From: Kiritimatiellia bacterium
GTDB taxonomy: Bacteria > Verrucomicrobiota > Kiritimatiellia > RFP12 > UBA1067
Assembly: GCA_017525225.1 (NCBI GenBank)
Contig: JAFXTB010000068.1
Location: forward strand, 14,526-78,525
Direction: 5' to 3'
Length of the DNA stretch: 64,000 bases
Below the pieces are notes generated by a model, which saw only the letters and a list, made by a program, of their open reading frames with translations, made no database searches and was not told the origin of the DNA. The position numbers and the translations under genes were made by a program. Numbering within the stretch: the first letter of the stretch is position 1; each line of letters opens with the position of its first letter. This document shows, piece by piece, positions 1-10,298 of the stretch.

Positions 1-1365
1 GCGCAACGGAAGACGGGCGATGCGGTCCCTCATCTCGTTGATGACCGACTCGTCTATTTCCCGTTTCCGCTTGACTTCAACAACGTATGCCGTCATAGGG
101 GTCTGTATCAGAAGATCGATTTGGCATCCCCCCTTCCCGCCCTTCGCATCGCGCCGCATGTTACGGTATGGCGCAGCAGACTCCACTATCGAATTTCCGA
201 GGTGAAGATACGGAATCAGCGACATCGCGTTGTTGACAATCAGATTCTCGAACTGAAGTCCCATCACGGCGTTCCATTCAGGAAGCGTTCCAAGCGACGC
301 GAACCTGAAACTTCCCGCCTCAATTTGCGGCTTTCGAGGCTTTACGTACTTCAGGTAGAAACGAGTGTAGTTGTCCTTCAGGCGGTATTTCCCCGTTCTC
401 ATACTTTCGCCAGTCGCGGGGTTGAGTCCGGGGTCGTCGGACAAAAATCCACCCTCCTTCAGTTCGCGGAGCGCGGACGCCATGCGTCCGCTTCGCTTCA
501 TCCCAAGGCGAACGGACAGTTCCGAGCCGGACATTGGACCGTCCGCCAACGATTCGAGAATGCGCCGCTTGAAATCCACGTCCGCACCGAATATCGGGCT
601 GAATATCGCATCGAAGTCCTTGTAGAGCTCGCCGCTCGTCGAGAAATACATCCGCCTGATGTTCTCCTCGGCGGAAAGCCCCGGATCGATTTCTTCGAGG
701 TAGCGCGGTATGCCGCCCGTGACGGACAGCACGTCAAATATCTCGCGAACGGAAACACTGTCCTTGGCGCCACGCCAGAACTCGGCGCATTCCTCGAGAT
801 TCAGTTCGGGAAGGACATAGTCACGAGAGAACCTCCCCGTAAAGCCGGTGTTGTCCAGAATGTTCTCCTTGATCCATGCCGATACCGAACCGCACACGGC
901 TACGACAAGTCTTGGGTGACGGTGGAAGTACGTCTCCCACGCGGTGCGTAATGCACCAGGATAGTTGATGTCATATCCGCCCATCCACGAGACCTCGTCC
1001 AAAAGTACGACCGTGCGCCTATCGTCGTCAATCTGTCCGTCAAGCCGATGGAACGCCTCTATCCAGTTGGCGACGGGTTCGCTTGATGCGTTGGTCTGCT
1101 CTGCGAGCGCAGATACAAAATGGTCAAGCTGCCGCTGATTTGTCATTTCCTTGTCTGGCGGCAACCCTTCAACCTCGATGTATGCGCTGGAAGTCCGCCG
1201 GGCGAATTCTCGTATCAACGTCGATTTGCCAATGCGCCGCCTCCCACGACAGGCAATAAAGGAACTCGTCGCTTTTCTCCAAAGCGATTCAAGGTCGTCA
1301 AGATACTCTCTCCGACCAATAAAATGCACGAAATTCGGATTCTTGCTGTTTTGTTTTTTTAACAT
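1..1365 (-). CDS. AAA+ ATPase (archaeal-ATPase / DUF234-type), 3' end runs off the left edge
   Basis: Not in the ORF track because it is incomplete. Hand translation from the ATG at 1365..1363 reads MLKKQNSKNPNFVHFIGRREYLDDLESLW... Walker A is 'GRRRIGKST' and a Walker B-like segment is 'VVLLDEVSWM'. The frame is open for 455 codons down to position 1. Confidence 0.75.
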   Translation of the reverse strand, partial: MLKKQNSKNPNFVHFIGRREYLDDLESLWRKATSSFIACRGRRRIGKSTLIREFARRTSSAYIEVEGLPPDKEMTNQRQLDHFVSALAEQTNASSEPVANWIEAFHRLDGQIDDDRRTVVLLDEVSWMGGYDINYPGALRTAWETYFHRHPRLVVAVCGSVSAWIKENILDNTGFTGRFSRDYVLPELNLEECAEFWRGAKDSVSVREIFDVLSVTGGIPRYLEEIDPGLSAEENIRRMYFSTSGELYKDFDAIFSPIFGADVDFKRRILESLADGPMSGSELSVRLGMKRSGRMASALRELKEGGFLSDDPGLNPATGESMRTGKYRLKDNYTRFYLKYVKPRKPQIEAGSFRFASLGTLPEWNAVMGLQFENLIVNNAMSLIPYLHLGNSIVESAAPYRNMRRDAKGGKGGCQIDLLIQTPMTAYVVEVKRKREIDESVINEMRDRIARLPLR

Positions 1366-1372
1366 ATCGCGT

Positions 1373-1401
1373 ATTATATCACTTTTTACCCAACATATCA
1401 A
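1373..1401 (-). promoter_or_regulatory. sigma70-type promoter for the ATPase gene, apparently leaderless
   Basis: Minus strand reads TTGATA (1401..1396), a 17-nt spacer, then TGATATAAT (1381..1373). Only 7 nt (acgcgat) separate the -10 from the ATG at 1365. Confidence 0.5.
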
Positions 1402-1408
1402 CAACGAA

Positions 1409-1443
1409 TGTCACGAAATTCAAAAATCCCGAATTTCGTGACA
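1409..1443 (-). terminator. 13-bp perfect inverted repeat; candidate terminator of the upstream Zn-ribbon operon or operator of the ATPase promoter
   Basis: TGTCACGAAATTC (1409-1421) and GAATTTCGTGACA (1431-1443) flank a 9-nt loop. On the minus strand the hairpin is followed by the U-rich UUCGUUGUUG and abuts the -35. Confidence 0.45.
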
Positions 1444-1604
1444 TTGCCTGCGACACTACCACAGACCTCATACATCCTTGGATGACCGCCTAACTGCGAA
1501 CGCCGCCATTTTGGCGGTGGGTTCTAACGGCCTTAAAGCCTTTACGGTCCTTAAAGCCATTGAGAACCAGCCATTTGACAAGGTTCGGACTCCGGCCGCA
1601 CCGT

Positions 1605-1829
1605 CTACGGCATCTCCACCTTCACCTTGAAGAACCTATGCAGGGAGTTGGTGGGATAACACCATTCACCGTCCAAAAGCGATTCTTTGCCATATACTTT
1701 GTAGGTTAGTATGATACCGTTGGTGTTGAGGCCTGGCGACCATGTGACATGCGGTAATCCATCCACCATTTCAATCGCCGCCGTGAAAACGCTGTTCACA
1801 TTGGTGGGATCCCTACAAGCTATCCTCAT
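1605..1829 (-). CDS. small hypothetical protein (74 aa), last gene of the Zn-ribbon operon
   Basis: Its start overlaps the upstream stop in ATGA (1826-1829) and it has the same AT-rich composition. The C-terminal '...YKVYGKESLLDGEWCYPTNSLHRFFKVKV' resembles the terminal beta-sandwich motif also ending protein 61170..61910 ('QFFKVIG'). No signal peptide. Confidence 0.5.
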   Translation of the reverse strand: MRIACRDPTNVNSVFTAAIEMVDGLPHVTWSPGLNTNGIILTYKVYGKESLLDGEWCYPTNSLHRFFKVKVEMP

Positions 1830-2740
1830 CTCCCCGTCATTTTCGTGTATCCATCTATCAACATCCTGTCATGTATAAGACTTTCCGCTATCTCCTTGGG
1901 TAGTGTTCGCGGCCGTTCAATCTGATTTGTCCTACGATAATATACTATCTGGTATTTCGTCCATGTATTAACGTCAAGAAGCATTAGATCACATATCCCA
2001 CTGGTTTCGTCGAAATATGATTCCGTCAATCCCAATCTGGAAAGGTTCTGTCGATATCTGCTCTTGATATTCTCTAGTGCACCGTTTATGGCCTCTTTCG
2101 CACTTGCAGGAGATCTGTGGTTCGATGTCATAGATGATGCTCGCGATGGATTAGATGGCGAAGAATTTAGATTCTTGTAGTAGTCCTCTCTCTCCTTCTT
2201 TAAGGCTTTATTTCTTTGGTCGGTTTCATCTATTATAGCCTGTGCCTCTGCATATGGCTTATACGGCTCATTGAGCGGTATGTATTCTGGTGATTCTGGT
2301 GAATCCACCTCTCGTTGTCGATAATCATCCTCCTTGTTACCGGACATGGTAAAAACACATATCAACAAAACTATAAAACAACCTCCGATAATCCATGCCA
2401 ACGAAATTCTGTTATTCATAGTTGATAGGCCAACTATCCGTCTCGGCAAATTCCATTCTACGTATTTTCTTCGAGCCTCCTCAAAACACTTCCTGCTAGT
2501 TTCAAAAGCGACGCCCGCGACTTTTTTGACTCTAGTTTGCTGAGACCTCCAATCAATATTCTTAACCCTTTCATAGACAGTGCCCGTTTTGACTCTAGTG
2601 GTATCTCTCATCGCCTTGGCCGTTAAAGTCCCTGCGACAAAACCCTTACCGCAGGATGCGCATTTGACGAACCTACCGTACTCGTTTTCCTCGGCGTCAT
2701 ATTCTGTTCCGCAATGGGGACATGCTATTTTCATTTGCAT
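1826..2740 (-). CDS. zinc-ribbon / single-TM membrane protein (304 aa from MQMKIACPHCG)
   Basis: N-terminal 'CPHCG-x17-CASCG' zinc ribbon and TM 'ISLAWIIGGCFIVLLICVFTM'. A strong RBS (GGAAAGGAAG) precedes the ATG at 2740, so the track start at 2788 is probably an extension. Carries the shared module 'SPEYIPLNEPYKPYAEAQAIIDE...KNLNSS'. Confidence 0.7.
   Translation of the reverse strand: MQMKIACPHCGTEYDAEENEYGRFVKCASCGKGFVAGTLTAKAMRDTTRVKTGTVYERVKNIDWRSQQTRVKKVAGVAFETSRKCFEEARRKYVEWNLPRRIVGLSTMNNRISLAWIIGGCFIVLLICVFTMSGNKEDDYRQREVDSPESPEYIPLNEPYKPYAEAQAIIDETDQRNKALKKEREDYYKNLNSSPSNPSRASSMTSNHRSPASAKEAINGALENIKSRYRQNLSRLGLTESYFDETSGICDLMLLDVNTWTKYQIVYYRRTNQIERPRTLPKEIAESLIHDRMLIDGYTKMTGR
2160..2297. 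repeat. copy 1 of a duplicated ~135-bp coding module shared by two adjacent genes
   Basis: Both ends are near-identical to 2982..3117 ('gaagaatttagattcttgt' and 'acggctcattgagcggtatgtattctgg'). The centre is diverged. Confidence 0.8.
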
Positions 2741-2875
2741 ACTTCCTTTCCTAGTATTCACAATGCGTCTCCCGTCCGACCTCCCCATATTTATTGTCTA
2801 TTGTTCTCTATCGTTCCTTCGGCGGAGATCCCTTGGCCTTAGCATCCGCCGATTTTGTAACTTCCCCTTTTCTGC

Positions 2876-5410
2876 CTAAGGCAGGCGTCCACTTGTGGTA
2901 TTTTCAGTCGCTCCCTCCATTGGAGCAGCCACTTCTGATGCCTCCTCGATTGAATGCCGTCTCCTACGCCTACGGGAAGTAGAAGAATTTAGATTCTTGT
3001 GATGGTCATCTCTCTTTTTCATTAACTCTCTGGAAGTTGCCTTAGCCTCATCAATTGCGGCCTGTTCCTCCGCAGTTGGCTTGTACGGCTCATTGAGCGG
3101 TATGTATTCTGGCGATTCCGACACAGACGCATGCTTGAGGCTCTTGTCCAGTTCCTTACGGTCATTGTTGGTTTTCTGCTGCAATATAGACTTCCCCTGA
3201 TTTACTTCTTTTACGCCACTTGATACCGATTTCTGTCCCAAATCGGACTTCTGCCCAGAAGTTTGGTTATCAGTCTCATCCTTATTACTAGAATCACCAC
3301 CTTTCATGGGTATTACATTTTGTCCGTCAGTCTTAGGTCTGTATGTAAAACCCCTGCCGTCACAACGGACACACTTGAATTTACCCTTACCGTTACAGTT
3401 CGAGCATGGCTCACCATTACCGCGTGACACTTCGCCAGAACCTCGACATCTGCCGCAAGTCTGCCATACCCCAACTTCACCACTGCCAAGGCAATTTTGA
3501 CAAGATTGTGGATAACCCCGGCCACTACCTCCGCAATTACTACATTGTTCTTTTGTGTCAAATCGTGCAGTACCATGCGAAACCCATACACGCCCCTTGC
3601 CACGACATGTTCCACATCTTTGTGTAATCCGACCAGTACCTCGGCAATGATCGCATTTGACTTGTTTTTTGACATAACCCTTACGTTCGCCATTACCACA
3701 TAGCGGGCACATTTCATGGTCATACACAACAATAGTTCCACTTCCCTTACAACGAGTACAATCAATGACACCTGTTCCACTACATAATGAACATTTCACC
3801 TTGCGTGATTCTAATTCTTTTGCCTCTTCTTCGGCACGTCGCTTCTCTTCTGCTACGGCTTTCTCAATGCGTCTTTTCTCTTCAATCGCCGCCCTTTCGA
3901 CTCGCTGACGGCTGTGAACCTTATAGCATTCCTCAAGAACACGCAATTTCACATCTAGCCGTTCCAATTCACGGTCAAGCCGTAACTGTTCAGTCTCAAT
4001 TTCTTCCAGTTTACTGGATGTCGAAAGGAGATGATTGTTATGCGGGATTACCTCCGTTTTTGTATCGGCAGTAGGATTGACTCGAATCGCCTCCTGACAC
4101 CCGAAATCATCACTCACCCCTCGGTTCAGAAATCTATTAATGTTCGCTATACGAGTTGAAATCATCTTACTTGTTTCAATGACATGATTAAGCCGTTTTT
4201 CCTTCTCTTTTTGCTCGCGTACCGCATTTTCTTCCTCTTCTGCCCTTCTTCTGGCTTCTTCTTTCTCTGACAACCGTTTGCGGGCGATTTTTTCATCCAT
4301 CTCTCGCATAACACGATAAATGCTACCATAAATCTCTACTGTACCACAGCAAACATATACACATGGCAATCCACTTAGAAGTCGAGGCCGACTTCGCCGA
4401 GTATTCAAAAACACATCACATCCTGAAAAATGTACTAGAGTTCCTGGCCGCCTATGTATTCTGCAATAAGATTGGCGAGCTTCTACTGGCCCAAGCGCTT
4501 CCAGATGGCCAGTCTCTCCATGCGTTGTATCTAACCCCGCAAAAGCATAGGCAGTTCCAATCTGGGGTCCGTTTCGTAGATTTTGAACAGAAGCGTCAAT
4601 AAGTGGACATTTTCTCTCATTGACATCTTCTATGTCGAACCAAAGAGGTCCAGTGATTAACCGAACAAGTATTGTTGCAATTATGTAACATACAATAACC
4701 ACAAATACCGAACGCCGTCTGCCTGGCGGGGATTGCATCACTCCAACATAATGGTATTGATACCAAGCACCGCAAGGTCGTGCGATGAGCAACGAGATAA
4801 TGGCTATGCTAGCGACTGATTGCATGAGAATACCGATAAAATCGTTCGGCCCCCAATTCCATACAGTTACAGCATAGATTGCACCAAGTATGCTGACGAC
4901 ATTCCCTATGTAACCGCAAATAATTGTCGTCCACCTAAACCAATTCCACTTGAGTAACATCCATGCGAAAAACATTGAAAACGAGAGCCCTATTCCCATG
5001 CCAATAGCACGTAACAACCATTGATAACCGAAAAACATTGGCGGCGGGAGACCTATTTCCATGCCAATAGCAATAGCAGGTAACCACCAGTGATAATCGA
5101 AGTCACAAGGGCAGATAGGCCACGTAGTAATTCCACCTATCGCCATCCATGCTACACAAATCCTAATCTGCCATGGTGCCGCCATAAATAATCGACGTAT
5201 ACTTTCATGCTCTGCTGAAACACGAACCTCTACGTCTTTCGGCATGTTCGTACAATCTGCAGAAGCGTCTCGTGGAATTGCAACATTCGTACCACAATAA
5301 GGACATCCCTGCATGCGTCCCTTAGCAAGATCGTCGGCAAACATTTGTTTGCCGCACTGCGGACAAATGAACTTAAAAGTCCTTCCCCCTATCTGCTTTT
5401 GAACCATCAT
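2876..5410 (-). CDS. 844-aa polytopic membrane protein: zinc ribbon, ~6 TM, coiled coil, 10x DnaJ-type CxxCxGxG cysteine-rich domain
   Basis: N-terminal 'CPQCG-x15-CPYCG' and hydrophobic segments at aa ~76-255. A Glu/Arg/Lys-rich coiled coil spans aa ~370-535. Aa 540-687 hold CSLCSGTG, CTRCKGSG, CPLCGNGE, CDHCRGTG, CGTCRGKG, CSNCGGSG, CQNCLGSG, CGRCRGSG, CSNCNGKG and CVRCDGRG. The tail has the shared module 'SPEYIPLNEPYKPTAEEQAAIDE...KNLNSS' followed by RRRRRR. Confidence 0.8.
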   Translation of the reverse strand: MMVQKQIGGRTFKFICPQCGKQMFADDLAKGRMQGCPYCGTNVAIPRDASADCTNMPKDVEVRVSAEHESIRRLFMAAPWQIRICVAWMAIGGITTWPICPCDFDYHWWLPAIAIGMEIGLPPPMFFGYQWLLRAIGMGIGLSFSMFFAWMLLKWNWFRWTTIICGYIGNVVSILGAIYAVTVWNWGPNDFIGILMQSVASIAIISLLIARPCGAWYQYHYVGVMQSPPGRRRSVFVVIVCYIIATILVRLITGPLWFDIEDVNERKCPLIDASVQNLRNGPQIGTAYAFAGLDTTHGETGHLEALGPVEARQSYCRIHRRPGTLVHFSGCDVFLNTRRSRPRLLSGLPCVYVCCGTVEIYGSIYRVMREMDEKIARKRLSEKEEARRRAEEEENAVREQKEKEKRLNHVIETSKMISTRIANINRFLNRGVSDDFGCQEAIRVNPTADTKTEVIPHNNHLLSTSSKLEEIETEQLRLDRELERLDVKLRVLEECYKVHSRQRVERAAIEEKRRIEKAVAEEKRRAEEEAKELESRKVKCSLCSGTGVIDCTRCKGSGTIVVYDHEMCPLCGNGERKGYVKKQVKCDHCRGTGRITQRCGTCRGKGRVWVSHGTARFDTKEQCSNCGGSGRGYPQSCQNCLGSGEVGVWQTCGRCRGSGEVSRGNGEPCSNCNGKGKFKCVRCDGRGFTYRPKTDGQNVIPMKGGDSSNKDETDNQTSGQKSDLGQKSVSSGVKEVNQGKSILQQKTNNDRKELDKSLKHASVSESPEYIPLNEPYKPTAEEQAAIDEAKATSRELMKKRDDHHKNLNSSTSRRRRRRHSIEEASEVAAPMEGATENTTSGRLP
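2982..3117. repeat. copy 2 of the duplicated ~135-bp coding module
   Basis: See 2160..2297. Encodes 'SESPEYIPLNEPYKPTAEEQAAIDEAKATSRELMKKRDDHHKNLNSS'. Confidence 0.8.
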
Positions 5411-6072
5411 GCACCTACTTTTTGCTGTTTAGAATAGTAGTTTAGAATAGTAATTGCAATATAACGAAATCCTAGATATCCAATTGGCATAGAGATAAAT
5501 GTTCCGATACCCATGCTTATTCGACATATCATGTCCAGATCCACACCACTGACACCAAGAATAAAACCTAGTATACCACAAAACACTACGGCTGCAATTA
5601 TCGTAGCCAAGGAATAGACAAGCCAGGCGACAAAATACTTCCATTCAGAGATATGACTTGTACCACCTAAAGGTACATAAGGTGAATATAGGTTTGACTT
5701 GGCATGCTGTTTTGGTGTATCCAACTGCTTTTCCGATTCACCGATAATAAATTTCCTTCCACACACTCCACAAATTGTACTGCGATACATGTCCTTCTTT
5801 TCTACAGTGTATTCCGCCCCACAGTACGGACATTTTGCCTGTGGACAATCGTTTTGATTCAATAACTTATTACGATTACCTTTTTGGTTTGGATCTCCTT
5901 GATAATGGTCTCGTGATATTGCCTCTGGAGGTTTTCTAACCCCAAGCCTCGATTTGCCGTGAGGCACTACAATTCCTTTACCACAGTGTGGACATTCCGC
6001 CACCTGACCACGAGACGACTCATCTGCAGCCACCATTTGCCCACATTGCGGACACTTGAATTCGATGTTCAT
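5407..6072 (-). CDS. double zinc-ribbon membrane protein (221 aa), first gene of the AT-rich operon
   Basis: 'CPQCG-x14-CPHCG' and 'CPYCG-x15-CGVCG' ribbons, plus C-terminal TM helices 'YFVAWLVYSLATIIAAVVFCGILGFILGV' and 'ISMGIGTFISMPIGYLGF'. RBS AAAGGAGAA lies upstream. Its stop overlaps the next start in ATGA (5407-5410). Confidence 0.75.
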   Translation of the reverse strand: MNIEFKCPQCGQMVAADESSRGQVAECPHCGKGIVVPHGKSRLGVRKPPEAISRDHYQGDPNQKGNRNKLLNQNDCPQAKCPYCGAEYTVEKKDMYRSTICGVCGRKFIIGESEKQLDTPKQHAKSNLYSPYVPLGGTSHISEWKYFVAWLVYSLATIIAAVVFCGILGFILGVSGVDLDMICRISMGIGTFISMPIGYLGFRYIAITILNYYSKQQKVGA

Positions 6073-6106
6073 TTTTTCGTTCTCCTTTCAAAATCCTTTT
6101 GTACCT

Positions 6107-6117
6107 ACTCTACCGAA
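6107..6117 (-). promoter_or_regulatory. weak candidate -10 (TTCGGTAGAGT) for the Zn-ribbon operon
   Basis: Degenerate version of the window-wide TTTGnTAnAAT element, 34 nt upstream of the ATG at 6072. Confidence 0.3.
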
Positions 6118-6549
6118 CAACGCCACTTCGGCACAAAAAGAAAGCGGCGCACCCTCGAAACCCTGTTTCCGAGAGGCACCACTACGAGCCTGGATGAAGC
6201 AGAAGAAAGAGGTTGCGCCGCATGATTGCCACACGGCGCAACACCGTATTTTCGCCTCATCCGTGAATAGTAGTGGTTTCCCGGAAGCTTCAATACGCTG
6301 TTGCGTATGTGTCGAAGTCCCGGATGGGATTCTTCGACCCCTCGCTCCGCTGCCCATTGCCGACACAGCTTACACGAGGTTTTGCCCTTCGCCTCCTGAT
6401 GCGGAAGCGTGAGATCACGCCACCATACCGTTGGCTTAGGACCGACAGCGGGAGCAATCGGCCTCCCGCCTATATCAAAGATCAATTCGTCCCGTTTTTG
6501 CGGAACGGTGGAATTATAGCAGATTTGCCGGTTGTCTGAAAGCCTAAAG

Positions 6550-6581
6550 ATATCCATGCAGAATTTCCTCTACATGGATAT
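6550..6581 (-). terminator. possible weak terminator after the kinase gene
   Basis: ATATCCATG (6550-6558) and CATGGATAT (6573-6581) form a 9-bp AU-rich stem with a 14-nt loop, followed by CUUUAGGCUUUC on the minus strand. Confidence 0.25.
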
Positions 6582-6614
6582 TTCCCTTTACCCCTGAAAT
6601 CTGACAGGGAAGAA

Positions 6615-8144
6615 TCAATAAGAAGAAGGAATTCCCTTCCGCATGACCTCCAAGGCGAACTTCTTGTCTTCCTTGCGTACTTCCTCGTAGGAGTCCGGGC
6701 CACGAAAGCGGAATAACGGCGTTCCGTTCCCTTTGAAGCTGTCCACCCAAATGTTCTTGTAATCACGATCCGCCGGAGGGTCGAGGTTCTTGAAGTTCAG
6801 ATAGCATGCGCCGTTGAGAACATATTTCATACTTGATTCTGGATAAGGTGTTGAGGTAAGGTTTATCAGTACCGCATGGTCATTCAGTTCAAGACTCACC
6901 TCTCGTGAACCTGTGATAGACGCAGTAATACGGCCTGGCCCAATCAGTTCAATCTTGCGTTTTCCCTCCAACTTCACTTCCCCGGGAACCACTATGTCGC
7001 GTCCACCTAACGACATATGTGTGACAAACATTCCATTTTCAAATTTAGTCTCACCTAGCTCAAGAAAGTTTTCTGCCGTTTTCGGCGCGATTTGAGAAAT
7101 TTCATTCGGTTTTATATTTTCCTCATGGGGGCTGTCCCCTTTTTCACGGGGACTGTCCCCATCGTAAATAGGTTGCGGACGCGCGGGACGCGCGTCCCTA
7201 CCGTAGTTTGCGACTGTCTCTTTTTGTGATATGACTGCTGTTTCCGGAGGCGTATCTGGTTTCGCCGGCTTAGTTGCATCTTTGCGGAAACAGATTGTTG
7301 CGAAGGCAACAACTGCCATGATGGCAATCGCGGCGAACCACCAATGCCAGACATGACGACGACGGATTGCCCTTTCAAATTCAGAGACGGAAGAATACCG
7401 TTGTTCCGGGATCGAGCAGGTCGAACGGCGGATGATCTTCGTCCATGCTTGCGGCGGATTACCACCAAAGCAGGCATTCGCCAACATACCTAGAGCATGG
7501 ATGTCGGTCGCAGGACCGATCTTGCCGCCCGCGAATTGTTCCGGTGCGGAAAACCCCGGCGTACCTACGCCTACGGCATGACCATCTACAACCGACACCG
7601 TATCGTTGCAGGCCTGTAGCGTATCGTCACTCTCCTTGGCAAGCCCCATGTCGATGAGTACGCTTTCGCCCGTAGCTGGGCGCGTCATCACATTGCGTGG
7701 CTTTATGTCCCGATGCACGAATCCACAGCGATGCAGTTCTTCAACACCCGCCGCCACATGCAGTATGAATCGCGCCACGGCCGTATCTGTTTCCGGGAGC
7801 GGCATCGGTTCCAGAAGTTCCTCGGCAATGTAGAAACGTCCGTTGGCATTACCCGCCTCATAGAACTTTGGAAACGACGCACATCGCATTTCGGCGAGAA
7901 GACGAGCCTCGCGCCGGAACCGCTCACGGGTTCTGTCGTCCGTTCTGCAAAGTATCTTCAACGCGGCTACGAAGCCTGTCGTTTCGTTTTCTGCACGATA
8001 GACCTCGGAGCTTCCGCCGCGTCCGAGAAAAGCTCGAATCATCCATCCACCTACACGGTCGCCGCAAGCAAGAATCGGCGGTTCCTCGAAAGGCCCGTGC
8101 GACCGGAGAAACCCCTCTATCTCTTCATCAGCGACATCAGACAT
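6615..8144 (-). CDS. membrane-anchored Hanks-type Ser/Thr protein kinase with extracytoplasmic C-terminal domain
   Basis: Gly-loop 'GRGGSSEVY', 'VAALK', catalytic loop 'HRDIKPRNV', 'DMGLA' (DFG variant) and 'GTPGFSAPE'. TM is 'WHWWFAAIAIMAVVAFATICF'. A ~210-aa C-terminal domain has no motif I recognise. Confidence 0.9.
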   Translation of the reverse strand: MSDVADEEIEGFLRSHGPFEEPPILACGDRVGGWMIRAFLGRGGSSEVYRAENETTGFVAALKILCRTDDRTRERFRREARLLAEMRCASFPKFYEAGNANGRFYIAEELLEPMPLPETDTAVARFILHVAAGVEELHRCGFVHRDIKPRNVMTRPATGESVLIDMGLAKESDDTLQACNDTVSVVDGHAVGVGTPGFSAPEQFAGGKIGPATDIHALGMLANACFGGNPPQAWTKIIRRSTCSIPEQRYSSVSEFERAIRRRHVWHWWFAAIAIMAVVAFATICFRKDATKPAKPDTPPETAVISQKETVANYGRDARPARPQPIYDGDSPREKGDSPHEENIKPNEISQIAPKTAENFLELGETKFENGMFVTHMSLGGRDIVVPGEVKLEGKRKIELIGPGRITASITGSREVSLELNDHAVLINLTSTPYPESSMKYVLNGACYLNFKNLDPPADRDYKNIWVDSFKGNGTPLFRFRGPDSYEEVRKEDKKFALEVMRKGIPSSY

Positions 8145-8739
8145 CCCCGACGGCCTCCAATGCCCGCACGATTCCGCGAAGCCGTGCTATCATGCGGCTC
8201 TTGGTCTTGTCGATGTTATTCCGGCTTGTCCCGTAGGCGGTGGCGACCTCTTCTGGCGCAATGCCGTCAACGGTAAGCCTCTGGAATATCTGCTTGGACT
8301 TGTCGGGGATCCTTTCGTCAGAAAGAAGTTGATGCATCGCGATTTCAAGAAGAGAAGTCCGCCAAGCGGTCTCCTCGTTTTCCGATGCCGCCTGCACGGC
8401 AGAAACCATATTCTCGCGCAAGCTGGCCTTCAGAGCACTGACCCGCTTCTCCTTCTCGTGCCACTTGAGCGCCTTCTTGTGGAGGATCCCCGTAAGATAG
8501 TTTCGGAAACGCCCAGTTTCATCCGGTGCATAACGGTAGCATGGGAGCGCTTTCGACAACACGGCAAACGTTTCCTGAACCATGTCATCGGCATCCACAT
8601 CAGGGAAATGCGTCTTAAGATACGCAAGCATCATAGGACGATACCGTGCCACAAACTCCGGCCAACGTGCGTTGCCCGCATCGGCCGATATCTCGCGCAG
8701 AAGAGTTGTAGATGTTTCTGGCACCATAAAAATCCACAA
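8137..8739 (-). CDS. ECF-type sigma-70 family factor
   Basis: Region 2-like 'DDMVQETFAVLSKALPCYRY' and region 4 HTH 'GIAPEEVATAYGTSRNNIDKTKSRMIARLR'. Its stop overlaps the kinase start by 8 nt (ATGTCTGA, 8137-8144). Confidence 0.85.
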   Translation of the reverse strand: MWIFMVPETSTTLLREISADAGNARWPEFVARYRPMMLAYLKTHFPDVDADDMVQETFAVLSKALPCYRYAPDETGRFRNYLTGILHKKALKWHEKEKRVSALKASLRENMVSAVQAASENEETAWRTSLLEIAMHQLLSDERIPDKSKQIFQRLTVDGIAPEEVATAYGTSRNNIDKTKSRMIARLRGIVRALEAVGDV

Positions 8740-8812
8740 ATACCTACCTCACCCTTTACAGGCGGGTAGAATTCATTATGCCGAACTGCGTTCCCGTTCA
8801 AGGAACGATGAA

Positions 8813-8820
8813 ATTATACA
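8813..8820 (-). promoter_or_regulatory. extended -10 (TGTATAAT) upstream of the sigma gene
   Basis: Reverse complement of attataca, about 73 nt upstream of the ATG at 8739. Confidence 0.4.
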
Positions 8821-8909
8821 CTATCGCGCTATGCGACGCAAGGGTACACGAGAAAAATCATTAGTGGCCAATTTTTCGGCAGGCCGTCTTATCAATCCCA
8901 TCCCTATCT

Positions 8910-10298
8910 TCAGAATCGCGGCAGCCTTGCCAGCGAATCCGCGAGGCCGCCTTCCCGGTTGCGAAGGCGCCACACGCGGGCATGGTCCTCGCGCAGGAAC
9001 CTGAGCCGCCTCTCATCCCGCCGGTTGCAGGCGGCATCCACGAGGTTGGCGATATGCACTATCTCCTCCGCCCACACCGCGCCCTGGCCATAGAGCGTGG
9101 GCGATGTGAACGCGCTGGCCGCATGGCGGCAGCCTTCGGCGATGGAGGAGATCTCGGCAAGGACGGAATCCGTCAATCCCGGATGGCGCGAATAGCCACG
9201 GTCGCCCGCAAGAATGCGGAAGAGCTCCGACGCATTGGCGCGCAGGGCGCCGCCACGCAGGTAGAGCGTACCCAACCGCAGCAGCGTACCGCCGAGCGGA
9301 ACCCCCATCGCGGCATCAAGCGCCTCCTCGAGGTTCATCTTCGCGGCAGAAGGCCCTTCCGACGCGAACGCGCCGCCGAGAATCAGACCCGGCAGGGATG
9401 CGGCCAATGGCTGCCAGTGCCCCCCGTCGCCCCAATCCGTCACCATGTATCCTTTCGCGCCGAACTGCCTGCCTGCGCGTTCCGCGGCCTCGAGGTTCTC
9501 GCGCATGTTCTCTATGCGCCCGGCAAGCGAATTCCAGCTGCTAGTGCCTGGGCATACGTAGAAGTCGAGTCCGGCGGCCTGGAATTTCGCCGCCTCCTCC
9601 ATGAACGGATGGTTGCCTTCATATCCCCAGTCGAGCGCGACCATGTCCTTCGGCAGCTCCGGCACGAGCTCGGGATGCTTCAGTATCATGTCGCCCCAGA
9701 ACATCGGCCTCCTGCCGTGCCTGCGGACGAGATCCGCCACCTTTTTCAGAAAGTCCAGATAGACGCGTCCGGCCCCCTTCTCCTTCACGGCGGCGGCGCT
9801 GCGTCCGCCGGGCGAGAGCAGGTCGAACGTCTCGTCGCATCCGATGTTGAAGAGCCTCGAGCCGAAGTTCGGGAGAAGCTCCGCGTAGAGGCCGTCGAGG
9901 AACTCGAGCGTGCGCGGATCCGTGGGGCAAAGCGTGGTGGGATCCTTCTTGACCGTGCCCCACGGCGTCATCGCGCCACCTTGCGGCAGCTCCGCCAGCG
10001 CGTTGTATTCAGGCAGCGAGAGCCACCTCTCCATGTGGCCGAAGGAGTTCTGGTTCGGCACAAGCTCGATGCCGTTCATGGCGCAGCAGGCATCGAGCTG
10101 GCGGATCTCGGCGGCGGTGAGGGGGGAGGCGTTGCGCCAGACGGCCTCATGCGCCGAGTAGGCGAACGCGTGCTCGATGTACAGCTGAAGCTGGTTGTAT
10201 CCAAAGCGCGCAAGCAGCTCGACGATGAGCCGCAGGGTGGACATGGTCGGAACCTTGTCCCGGCTGATGTCGAGCATATAGGCGCGGTACGTGAACAT
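8910..10298 (-). CDS. GH20-like beta-N-acetylhexosaminidase (catalytic domain)
   Basis: 'MLDISRDKVP', 'NSFGHMERW' and 'FNIGCDETFD' (D-E pair). The start is trimmed to the ATG at 10298, 2 nt after the rlmB stop; the track's 539-aa ORF overlaps rlmB with an Arg/Gly-rich extension. Confidence 0.7.
   Translation of the reverse strand: MFTYRAYMLDISRDKVPTMSTLRLIVELLARFGYNQLQLYIEHAFAYSAHEAVWRNASPLTAAEIRQLDACCAMNGIELVPNQNSFGHMERWLSLPEYNALAELPQGGAMTPWGTVKKDPTTLCPTDPRTLEFLDGLYAELLPNFGSRLFNIGCDETFDLLSPGGRSAAAVKEKGAGRVYLDFLKKVADLVRRHGRRPMFWGDMILKHPELVPELPKDMVALDWGYEGNHPFMEEAAKFQAAGLDFYVCPGTSSWNSLAGRIENMRENLEAAERAGRQFGAKGYMVTDWGDGGHWQPLAASLPGLILGGAFASEGPSAAKMNLEEALDAAMGVPLGGTLLRLGTLYLRGGALRANASELFRILAGDRGYSRHPGLTDSVLAEISSIAEGCRHAASAFTSPTLYGQGAVWAEEIVHIANLVDAACNRRDERRLRFLREDHARVWRLRNREGGLADSLARLPRF

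Follow-up and report, generated by a model that had tools for sequence, protein, structure and literature searches.

A stalk-mounted array of ten DnaJ-type cysteine knuckles, probably exported, in a membrane protein of a Kiritimatiellia bacterium

We analysed a 64,000-nucleotide stretch of DNA from a Kiritimatiellia bacterium (GenBank assembly GCA_017525225.1, contig JAFXTB010000068.1, positions 14,526 to 78,525; hereafter the window). One of its genes encodes P0001, a membrane protein of 844 amino acids (aa) that carries ten tandem cysteine knuckles of the CxxCxGxG type found in DnaJ/Hsp40. The array forms the core of a conserved domain, here called CR10, which follows a charged stalk and is shared with Sel1-repeat proteins and a receptor-type kinase of gut and rumen Kiritimatiellia. 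By analogy with better known knuckles, CR10 may be the periplasmic protein-binding or sensing head of an envelope module linked to an extracytoplasmic function (ECF) sigma factor and a Ser/Thr kinase. We give this reading a probability of about 0.5.

A preliminary description of the window, made from the DNA letters, had reported ten consecutive DnaJ-type motifs at aa 540-687. A regular-expression scan recovered the same ten strings, with CxxC starts at aa 540, 551, 568, 586, 599, 623, 637, 652, 669 and 680 (the array corresponds to nucleotides 3350-3793); nine are strict CxxCxGxG motifs and one is a variant, CPLCGNGE. Elsewhere in P0001, CxxC occurs only at aa 16 and 36, within an N-terminal zinc ribbon that the description had also recognised and that has weak Pfam matches. 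The Pfam model DnaJ_CXXCXGXG (PF00684), proposed there as a check, matches P0001 in three stretches with 34.2 bits, above its gathering cut-off of 32.7 (E = 3.1e-8). When nine arrays were aligned, all 20 cysteines proved invariant, as did the flanks ELESRK and GRGFT(Y)RP(K), and the glycines of CxxCxGxG are conserved as in zinc knuckles. Exactly ten knuckles could be parsed in 28 of 37 relatives, and across these 28 proteins the successive gaps are 11, 17, 14-37, 13-15, 14-28, 13-16, 15-16, 17 and 11. The array is not a chance pattern, because it scores above the PF00684 cut-off, all 20 of its cysteines are invariant and its spacing is fixed in relatives.

This spacing is palindromic: the outer gaps are fixed at 11 and 17 on one side and at 17 and 11 on the other; the tip varies in length, as does one bulge. 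AlphaFold2 modelling of aa 531-697 from a 10-sequence alignment gave a mean predicted local distance difference test score (pLDDT) of 75.6, with values above 84 for residues 25-135 and below 50 at both ends. The model places one beta-strand between successive knuckles, with lengths of 9, 7, 5 and 4 in the first half and 4, 6, 7 and 9 in the second, and its sole strand-turn-strand lies between knuckles 5 and 6. Because of the palindromic spacing and this strand pattern, CR10 fits a single long hairpin of five rungs, in which the knuckles would pair as 1-10, 2-9, 3-8, 4-7 and 5-6. A profile search of the PDB retrieved the DnaJ cysteine-rich (CR) domain 1exk (9.6e-10) and also 2ctt, anti-TRAP (3lcz) and two more DnaJ-family chains, while the best Foldseek matches were DnaJA2, DNAJA3 (2ctt), DnaJ (1exk), 6jzb and BSD2, with a template-modelling score of only about 0.2. 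From the sequence we infer that CR10 probably holds about five Zn(Cys)4 sites; the preliminary description had suggested as many zinc centres, and the Pfam, profile and Foldseek matches, the spacing and the predicted strands are all consistent with that suggestion.

The known DnaJ-type CR domains belong to chaperones of the cytoplasm or of plastids and hold two zinc ions. CR10 resembles the CR domain of type I DnaJ/Hsp40 (PF00684; 1exk; 2ctt) in its CxxCxGxG knuckle, with a score above the Pfam cut-off, and the proposed topology would be alike, with outer knuckles pairing with outer and inner with inner, as an extension of the 1-4/2-3 pairing of DnaJ; the AlphaFold2 strand pattern fits such an extended hairpin. 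However, the DnaJ domain has four knuckles and two sites, compared with ten knuckles and about five putative sites in CR10, and CR10, flanked by ELESRK and GRGFTYRPK, is probably exported and is attached through a charged stalk to the ends of membrane proteins. The J domain, the G/F region and the C-terminal client-binding domains of Hsp40 are all absent from P0001. As the preliminary description had stated, there is no J domain (the Pfam scan found no match to PF00226 in P0001), and the NCBIfam DnaJ equivalogs reach only about 31-32 bits against cut-offs of 338-377, with the match confined to the cysteine-rich stretch. P0001 would thus not be classed as a type I Hsp40/DnaJ chaperone.

A further parallel may be drawn with the plant proteins BSD2, LQY1, PSA2, OR and FIP, which, like P0001, have CR knuckles without a J domain and are in some cases membrane-anchored. 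Plant DnaJ-like zinc-finger proteins bind partners, and reviews credit some of them with disulfide-isomerase-type activity. The knuckles of a pair lie three residues apart in this group, as do knuckles 1-2 and 9-10 of CR10. BSD2, LQY1 and PSA2 are small and end in four CxxCxGxG motifs that form two pairs, and PSA2 is a protein of the thylakoid lumen, a compartment that counts topologically as outside (PMC4806229). In contrast to P0001, the plant group consists of eukaryotic plastid proteins with four knuckles and with no stalk, zinc ribbon or Sel1 repeats, and no homology was seen beyond the knuckles; the Pfam model BSD2_CRD gives P0001 13 bits against a cut-off of 27 (E = 0.12), which places it outside that family. 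Anti-TRAP (RtpA, 3lcz) builds one Zn(Cys)4 site from two DnaJ-type knuckles and uses it for protein binding only. Unlike P0001, it is a 53-aa cytoplasmic protein with a single site, and the NCBIfam RtpA model scores P0001 at 34 bits against a cut-off of 65 (E = 2e-8; 1.3e-5 for 3lcz in the PDB profile search), again short of membership. A literature search for bacterial periplasmic CxxCxGxG proteins returned plant papers only. The ten-knuckle, probably exported module and the architecture with five transmembrane helices are undescribed in the libraries (Pfam and NCBIfam) and the literature searched, which agrees with the preliminary description, whose author had not recognised the architecture as a known family.

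When the search was limited to aa 530-700, proteins sharing the array were recovered with identities of 48-72%. A second search, seeded with one of these proteins, returned 33 clusters, among which the sole source name is 'hypothetical protein [Kiritimatiellia bacterium]'. At least 35 unnamed clusters from gut and rumen Kiritimatiellia carry the array, nearly all of them with Sel1 repeats. Their usual order is zinc ribbon, one transmembrane helix, Sel1 repeats, stalk and CR10. P0007 begins instead with a Ser/Thr kinase, followed by one transmembrane helix, Sel1 repeats and CR10, while P0012 and the protein of locus L018 have a different long N-terminal part. Within the Sel1 family of Kiritimatiellia (P0006, P0007 and P0010, the last annotated 'hypothetical protein ACI4RD_09910'), stalk and CR10 are homologous to those of P0001, with 53-74% identity in CR10. 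Family and P0001 are also alike in their type of ribbon, downstream partner gene, association with a kinase and low GC content. They differ in that five transmembrane helices and an orphan domain replace the single helix and the Sel1 repeats, to which the Pfam scan found no match in P0001, and in the 150-aa tail that P0001 has added. P0001 is 46% identical to the Sel1-type P0006 over aa 373-693 (327 aa), covering stalk and CR10, and the N-terminal ribbons are homologous too. With its stalk and linker, ELESRK, ten knuckles at fixed spacing and GRGFTYRPK, P0001 has the marks of the stalk-CR10 module, but not the single helix and following Sel1 repeats that are usual ahead of the stalk.

The N-terminal part is an orphan with three known members. 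The first 365 aa of P0001 were compared exhaustively with 1.84 billion representatives by HMMER; 108 of the 110 matches cover the zinc ribbon alone (aa 10-60), and the transmembrane and beta-rich globular part was matched only by P0005 and the truncated P0013. P0005 is the sole other full-length cluster (673 aa, 48% identical) and comes from a Logan contig and from a metagenome-assembled genome (MAG), 'Verrucomicrobia bacterium UBA3624'. The search for orthologues of the same architecture that had been proposed earlier was thus successful as far as P0005 and, in part, P0013 are concerned, while the array itself recurs in the at least 35 clusters of other architecture. CR10 of P0001 is 72% and 74% identical to that of P0006 and P0007, and 61% identical to that of its own full-length orthologue; the closest CR10 subgroup (61-74% identity) comprises three N-terminal architectures. 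Stalk and CR10 (aa 373-693) are therefore a shuffled module, and since CR10 of P0001 is nearer to P0006 and P0007 than to its own orthologue, the alignments suggest that the C-terminal module was recently exchanged between architectures.

Two further proteins carry CxxC arrays. Contig 60 of the same genome (locus L005, 1408-2697) encodes a protein of 429 aa with about 13 N-terminal knuckles and no signal peptide, in which the array is followed by an ER/K-rich stretch and C-terminal transmembrane helices (PF00684, 2.3e-10); its building blocks are those of P0001 in reversed order. A Victivallales MAG (locus L012, 5191-6408) encodes a distant, 31%-identical protein in which a signal anchor is combined with 13 CxxC motifs, and several of these are of the DnaJ type; exported CxxC arrays are therefore not confined to Kiritimatiellia.

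Several observations bear on the integrity of the gene. Its ATG overlaps the stop codon of the upstream gene P0003 as ATGA, and a public protein collection contains P0001 identical except for the missing first Met. An RNA run yielded two perfect 151-nucleotide contigs within 5018-5336, in the 5' part of the gene, and one of them includes the duplication copy at 5029-5072 (see below). The sequencing runs X1-X3, with the same contig sizes and depths, are apparently one data set filed three times and do not count as independent support. The duplication and a borrowed tail had raised the suspicion of a pseudogene or an assembly chimera, which we rejected: the 844-aa frame is open, the duplication is in frame and 16% diverged, and the RNA run, which came from another sample, covers one of its copies.

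The features of P0001 and its surroundings are collected in the table below.

Table. Coordinates of P0001, its parts and neighbouring features, numbered from the first letter of the window
Feature	Position	Strand	Basis or remark
P0001, whole gene, 844 aa	2876..5410	minus	open reading frame (ORF) call and translation, stop-free
Zinc ribbon, aa 10-45, CPQC...CPYC, predicted cytoplasmic	5276..5383	minus	weak Pfam zinc-ribbon matches
Polytopic membrane region, aa 79-256	4643..5176	minus	hydropathy, Hessa-type dG, AlphaFold2 helices (low confidence)
63-nucleotide tandem duplication, copies 4966-5009 and 5029-5072, 84% identical	4966..5072	minus	DNA repeat comparison
Orphan beta-rich globular domain, aa 257-365, conserved CP, NGPQIG, YVCCGTVE	4316..4642	minus	relatives P0005 and P0013 only
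Charged helical stalk, aa 366-531	3818..4315	minus	charge content and homology to Sel1-type stalks
CR10 domain, aa 532-693: ELESRK, ten CxxC(xGxG) knuckles, GRGFTYRPK	3332..3817	minus	contains 3350-3793
C-terminal tail, aa 694-844, low-complexity, Ser/Asn/Lys-rich	2876..3331	minus	direct repeats and orthologue comparison
P0002, zinc ribbon, one transmembrane helix, shared tail module, C-terminal domain of about 100 aa	1826..2788	minus	downstream gene
P0003, 221 aa, two zinc ribbons and C-terminal transmembrane helices	5407..6072	minus	translationally coupled to P0001
Spacer between kinase gene and operon, about 540 nucleotides	6073..6614	minus	blastn conservation upstream of CR10 operons elsewhere
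Receptor-type Ser/Thr kinase	6615..8144	minus	Pfam Pkinase 3.7e-26; upstream of operon
ECF-type sigma factor, overlaps kinase gene	8137..8739	minus	Sigma70_r2 1.2e-8
AAA/DUF234-type ATPase	1-1404	minus	PADLOC candidate PDC-S27, 5.5e-74

The N-terminal ribbon of P0001 shares 33-39% identity with those of P0003 and P0006. It is followed by five likely transmembrane helices, at about aa 80-100, 134-153, 160-184, 190-211 and 234-256. The preliminary description had counted about six helices with an internal duplication. The duplication is real at the DNA level and encodes the internal repeat AIAIGMEIGLPPPMFF / AIGMGIGLSFSMFF, but the count is better set at five, since the duplicated segment at aa 109-130, which contains a Glu and PPP, is unlikely to span: its approximate Hessa-type insertion free energy (dG) is +9.9 kcal/mol, compared with +0.3 for its twin. 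The duplication is absent from the orthologues in loci L007 and L008, and P0005 is without the extra segment. An AlphaFold2 model of the N-terminal 365 aa, built on a 3-sequence alignment, has a pLDDT of 38 and is unreliable, and we used it for helix positions alone. The beta-rich domain at aa 257-365 has no match in Pfam or NCBIfam. The region that follows had been described as a charged coiled coil of about 165 aa. It is indeed charged, but it consists of two ER/K-like helical segments (366-425 and 466-535) on either side of a conserved 40-aa linker; the segments have 53-59% charged residues, are free of Pro and Gly and give a weak heptad signal, and the region is a charged helical stalk rather than a proven coiled coil. 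Beyond CR10, the tail includes an RRRRRR run and contains a module copied from, or common to, the next gene, P0002 (nucleotides 2982-3118 versus 2160-2296). The direct repeats D1 and D2 are 84-86% identical, and aa 752-840 of P0001 share 47% amino acid identity with aa 152-243 of P0002. Both orthologues are missing the tail, P0005 ending at TYRPK.

To place CR10 relative to the membrane, we compared P0001 with its relatives. In P0007 a single transmembrane helix separates the kinase from Sel1 repeats and CR10; the kinase must be cytoplasmic, so one helix puts CR10 on the other side. Nine of ten single-helix members have positive charge on the N side of the helix. The loop charges of P0001 and P0005 fit an N-in, C-out arrangement with five helices, with KWNWFR and GRRRS inside and acidic loops outside. 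The tail module of P0001 also follows the transmembrane helix of P0002, on the exported side, and the C-terminal domain of P0002 is found behind signal peptides at other loci. On these four grounds we judge it quite likely that stalk and CR10 lie outside the cytoplasm. DsbA, DsbB and VKOR were not found in the genome (G000, 4.2 Mb, 100% complete), whereas control genomes were positive, and the organism is apparently without the canonical machinery for periplasmic disulfide formation. The gene was detected in gut, bovine gut and goat gut metagenomes, its relatives occur in RUG rumen MAGs, and the host organisms are presumably anaerobes. Given the lack of DsbA, DsbB and VKOR and the gut and rumen occurrence, zinc-thiolate sites rather than disulfides are plausible outside the cytoplasm.

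The genes around P0001 offer candidate partners. A 47%-identical homologue of P0003 directly precedes the orthologue at loci L007 and L008. By eye, similarity is seen between the last transmembrane helix of P0003 (MGIGTFISMPIGYLGF) and the helix that is duplicated in P0001 (GMGIGLSFSMFFAW / GMEIGLPPPMFFGY), and these transmembrane segments may have a common ancestry. Downstream, the C-terminal domain of P0002 (aa 219-317) has no Pfam match. Counterparts are encoded right after the CR10 gene at L011 (6585-8126, 68% identity), L020 (6354-7481, 46%) and L017 (5612-6610, 42%), with a signal peptide in all three, and the domain is on this evidence a candidate exported partner of CR10. It is not at the downstream position in L008, L009, L016 or G035. 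The kinase upstream of the operon is orthologous to the one upstream of the CR10 gene in L020 (53% identity over 505 aa). The intervening spacer, to which Rfam has no match, was aligned by blastn with L009 and L020 (72-74% over 217-261 nucleotides) and L017 (68% over 216 nucleotides). It may act as a promoter region or conserved leader, or it may encode a small RNA or a small ORF.

Some further observations concern these neighbourhoods. In Bacillus, an ECF anti-sigma factor is cleaved at site 1 by the protease PrsW. In L011, the gene immediately upstream of the CR10 gene (3052-4233) joins the same MJ0042-type zinc ribbon to an intramembrane protease of the PrsW family. After P0002, a 74-aa ORF (1605-1829, minus strand) ends in RFFKVKVEMP; the ending RFFKVEVWVP of a 217-aa protein encoded after the L016 CR10 gene is similar, but BLAST gave no match between the two. 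The Logan contigs break at 1605-1634.

The module is rare. It is present in 2 of 61 close relatives, is absent from a genome of the same genus and turned up in 2 of the 401 genomes of a phylum-wide sample. The three operon genes have a GC content of 42-46%, compared with about 64% for most of the window, and elsewhere the CR10 gene is lower in GC than at least one flank at every locus with usable flanks and lower than both in L008 and L009. From this patchy presence and low GC it follows that the CR10 module is an accessory, patchily distributed element. PADLOC returned no meaningful match for P0001, P0002 or P0003. A functional link to the neighbouring DUF234/PDC-S27 ATPase was considered and rejected, as the ATPase is not conserved at other loci and a second one lies elsewhere in the window; a related ATPase fragment occurs in L008, about 3 kb away from the two orthologous genes.

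Taking these results together, we propose that P0001 would be an inner-membrane protein with its N-terminal zinc ribbon facing the cytoplasm. After five membrane passes, the beta-rich domain, the stalk and the 162-aa CR10 would be displayed in the periplasm, where ten knuckles on one hairpin would give about five Zn(Cys)4 rungs and a rigid rod of an estimated length of about 10 nm, held away from the membrane by the charged stalk. As an extracytoplasmic head, CR10 would bind proteins or sense, a role proposed by analogy because the knuckles of DnaJ, BSD2 and anti-TRAP bind proteins, and it may work with P0003, the exported P0002-type domain, the receptor kinase and the ECF sigma factor.

A number of points weigh against this proposal. 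The downstream partner domain is present at only four of eight loci, and the link to kinase and sigma factor is seen at two loci and in one fusion; the kinase nearest to the G035 gene lies at a distance of 5 kb and is non-orthologous. Helix 1 is marginally hydrophobic (dG +4.5), and if it did not span the membrane, or if the duplicated segment did, the C-terminal part of P0001 would be cytoplasmic. In P0007 the charge bias around the helix is reversed, and it would be unusual for a stalk of such high charge and an RRRRRR run to be exported. As for the fold, knuckles 1 and 10 have pLDDT values below 50, and the cysteine pairing is deduced from only two sources, spacing and strand pattern. The RNA evidence is limited to the two 151-nucleotide contigs.

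The other explanations differ in where CR10 lies and in what its cysteines do. If the array were cytoplasmic, P0001 might be a membrane-tethered DnaJ-like holdase or might serve as a zinc scaffold at the inner face. The reducing cytoplasm is where Zn(Cys)4 sites are typically found, counting the duplicated segment would give six hydrophobic segments and a C-terminus inside, and the reversed protein encoded on contig 60 has a presumably cytoplasmic N-terminal array ahead of its ER/K stretch and transmembrane helices. We nevertheless consider this rather unlikely, given the high dG of the duplicated segment (+9.9) with its Glu and PPP, the orthologue with just five segments and loop charges that fit C-out, and the single-helix relatives and kinase fusion, which put the module across the membrane from a cytoplasmic N-terminal domain. 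Outside the cytoplasm, the 20 cysteines might instead form disulfides, which would knot CR10 into an extracellular domain with a structural or adhesive role, similar to DnaJ knuckles in sequence only. This seems very doubtful to us: a complete genome without DsbA, DsbB or VKOR, where control genomes were positive, hosts from gut and rumen that are presumably anaerobes, the retention of the CxxCxGxG glycines as in zinc knuckles, and profile and Foldseek matches specifically to zinc-binding CR domains all speak against it.

The remaining alternatives concern what the gene is for. P0001 might mainly regulate the adjacent sigma factor or kinase through its cytoplasmic ribbon, as an anti-sigma-like protein, a substrate or a co-receptor, with CR10 as the sensor. 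A zinc-binding N-terminal domain, a transmembrane region and a large outside domain are an anti-sigma-like layout; the sigma and kinase genes lie directly upstream, with no recognisable anti-sigma gene within 1-9000, and the orthologous kinase of L020, the kinase fusion of P0007 and the PrsW-type protease fused to the same ribbon in L011 point the same way. The ribbon, however, reads CPQC...CPYC, without the His-x3-Cys-x2-Cys (HxxxCxxC) signature of ZAS anti-sigma factors and without a zf-HC2 match, most CR10 loci have no adjacent sigma factor, and the spacer of 540 nucleotides separates operon and kinase, so that we regard this role as unlikely. Still more speculative, and quite unlikely in our view, is a periplasmic zinc-thiolate switch of strict anaerobes that responds to redox state or metal. 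In gut or rumen, the five Zn(Cys)4 rungs would be lost on exposure to oxidants or oxygen or when zinc is withdrawn, and the collapse of the rod would be transmitted to kinase and sigma factor, directly so in P0007; if true, this would be an extracytoplasmic counterpart of the zinc-release switches Hsp33 and RsrA. It is highly improbable that the gene travels on a horizontally mobile island of accessory or defence type and has its role in conflict with phages or competitors instead of in housekeeping envelope biology. Its GC of 42-46% against about 64% for the genome, the CR10 genes lower in GC than at least one flank, the 2 of 61 relatives and 2 of 401 phylum genomes, the PDC-S27-like ATPase (5.5e-74) adjoining the operon, and a DUF234-type ATPase and a nucleotidyltransferase/HEPN-like pair (read by eye from the ORFs) near the orthologue would suit such an island, but P0001, P0002 and P0003 have no meaningful PADLOC match, the ATPase is not kept beside other CR10 genes, and the loci that were read showed no integrase, transposase or phage genes.

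Our preferred reading remains that of an extracytoplasmic binding or sensing head, and CR10 is of interest beyond P0001 itself. It extends the DnaJ knuckle to a conserved ten-knuckle, stalk-mounted and most probably exported module. In Kiritimatiellia of gut and rumen, which have received little study, this module has moved between membrane proteins, proteins with Sel1 repeats and a receptor kinase. Domain libraries do not distinguish CR10 from other domains covered by the general DnaJ CR model, and its carriers are nameless. If the zinc stoichiometry and the topology are true, CR10 would be a new extracytoplasmic zinc-ladder domain and would provide a handle on envelope signalling by ECF sigma factors and Ser/Thr kinases in bacteria of the Planctomycetes-Verrucomicrobia-Chlamydiae (PVC) group.

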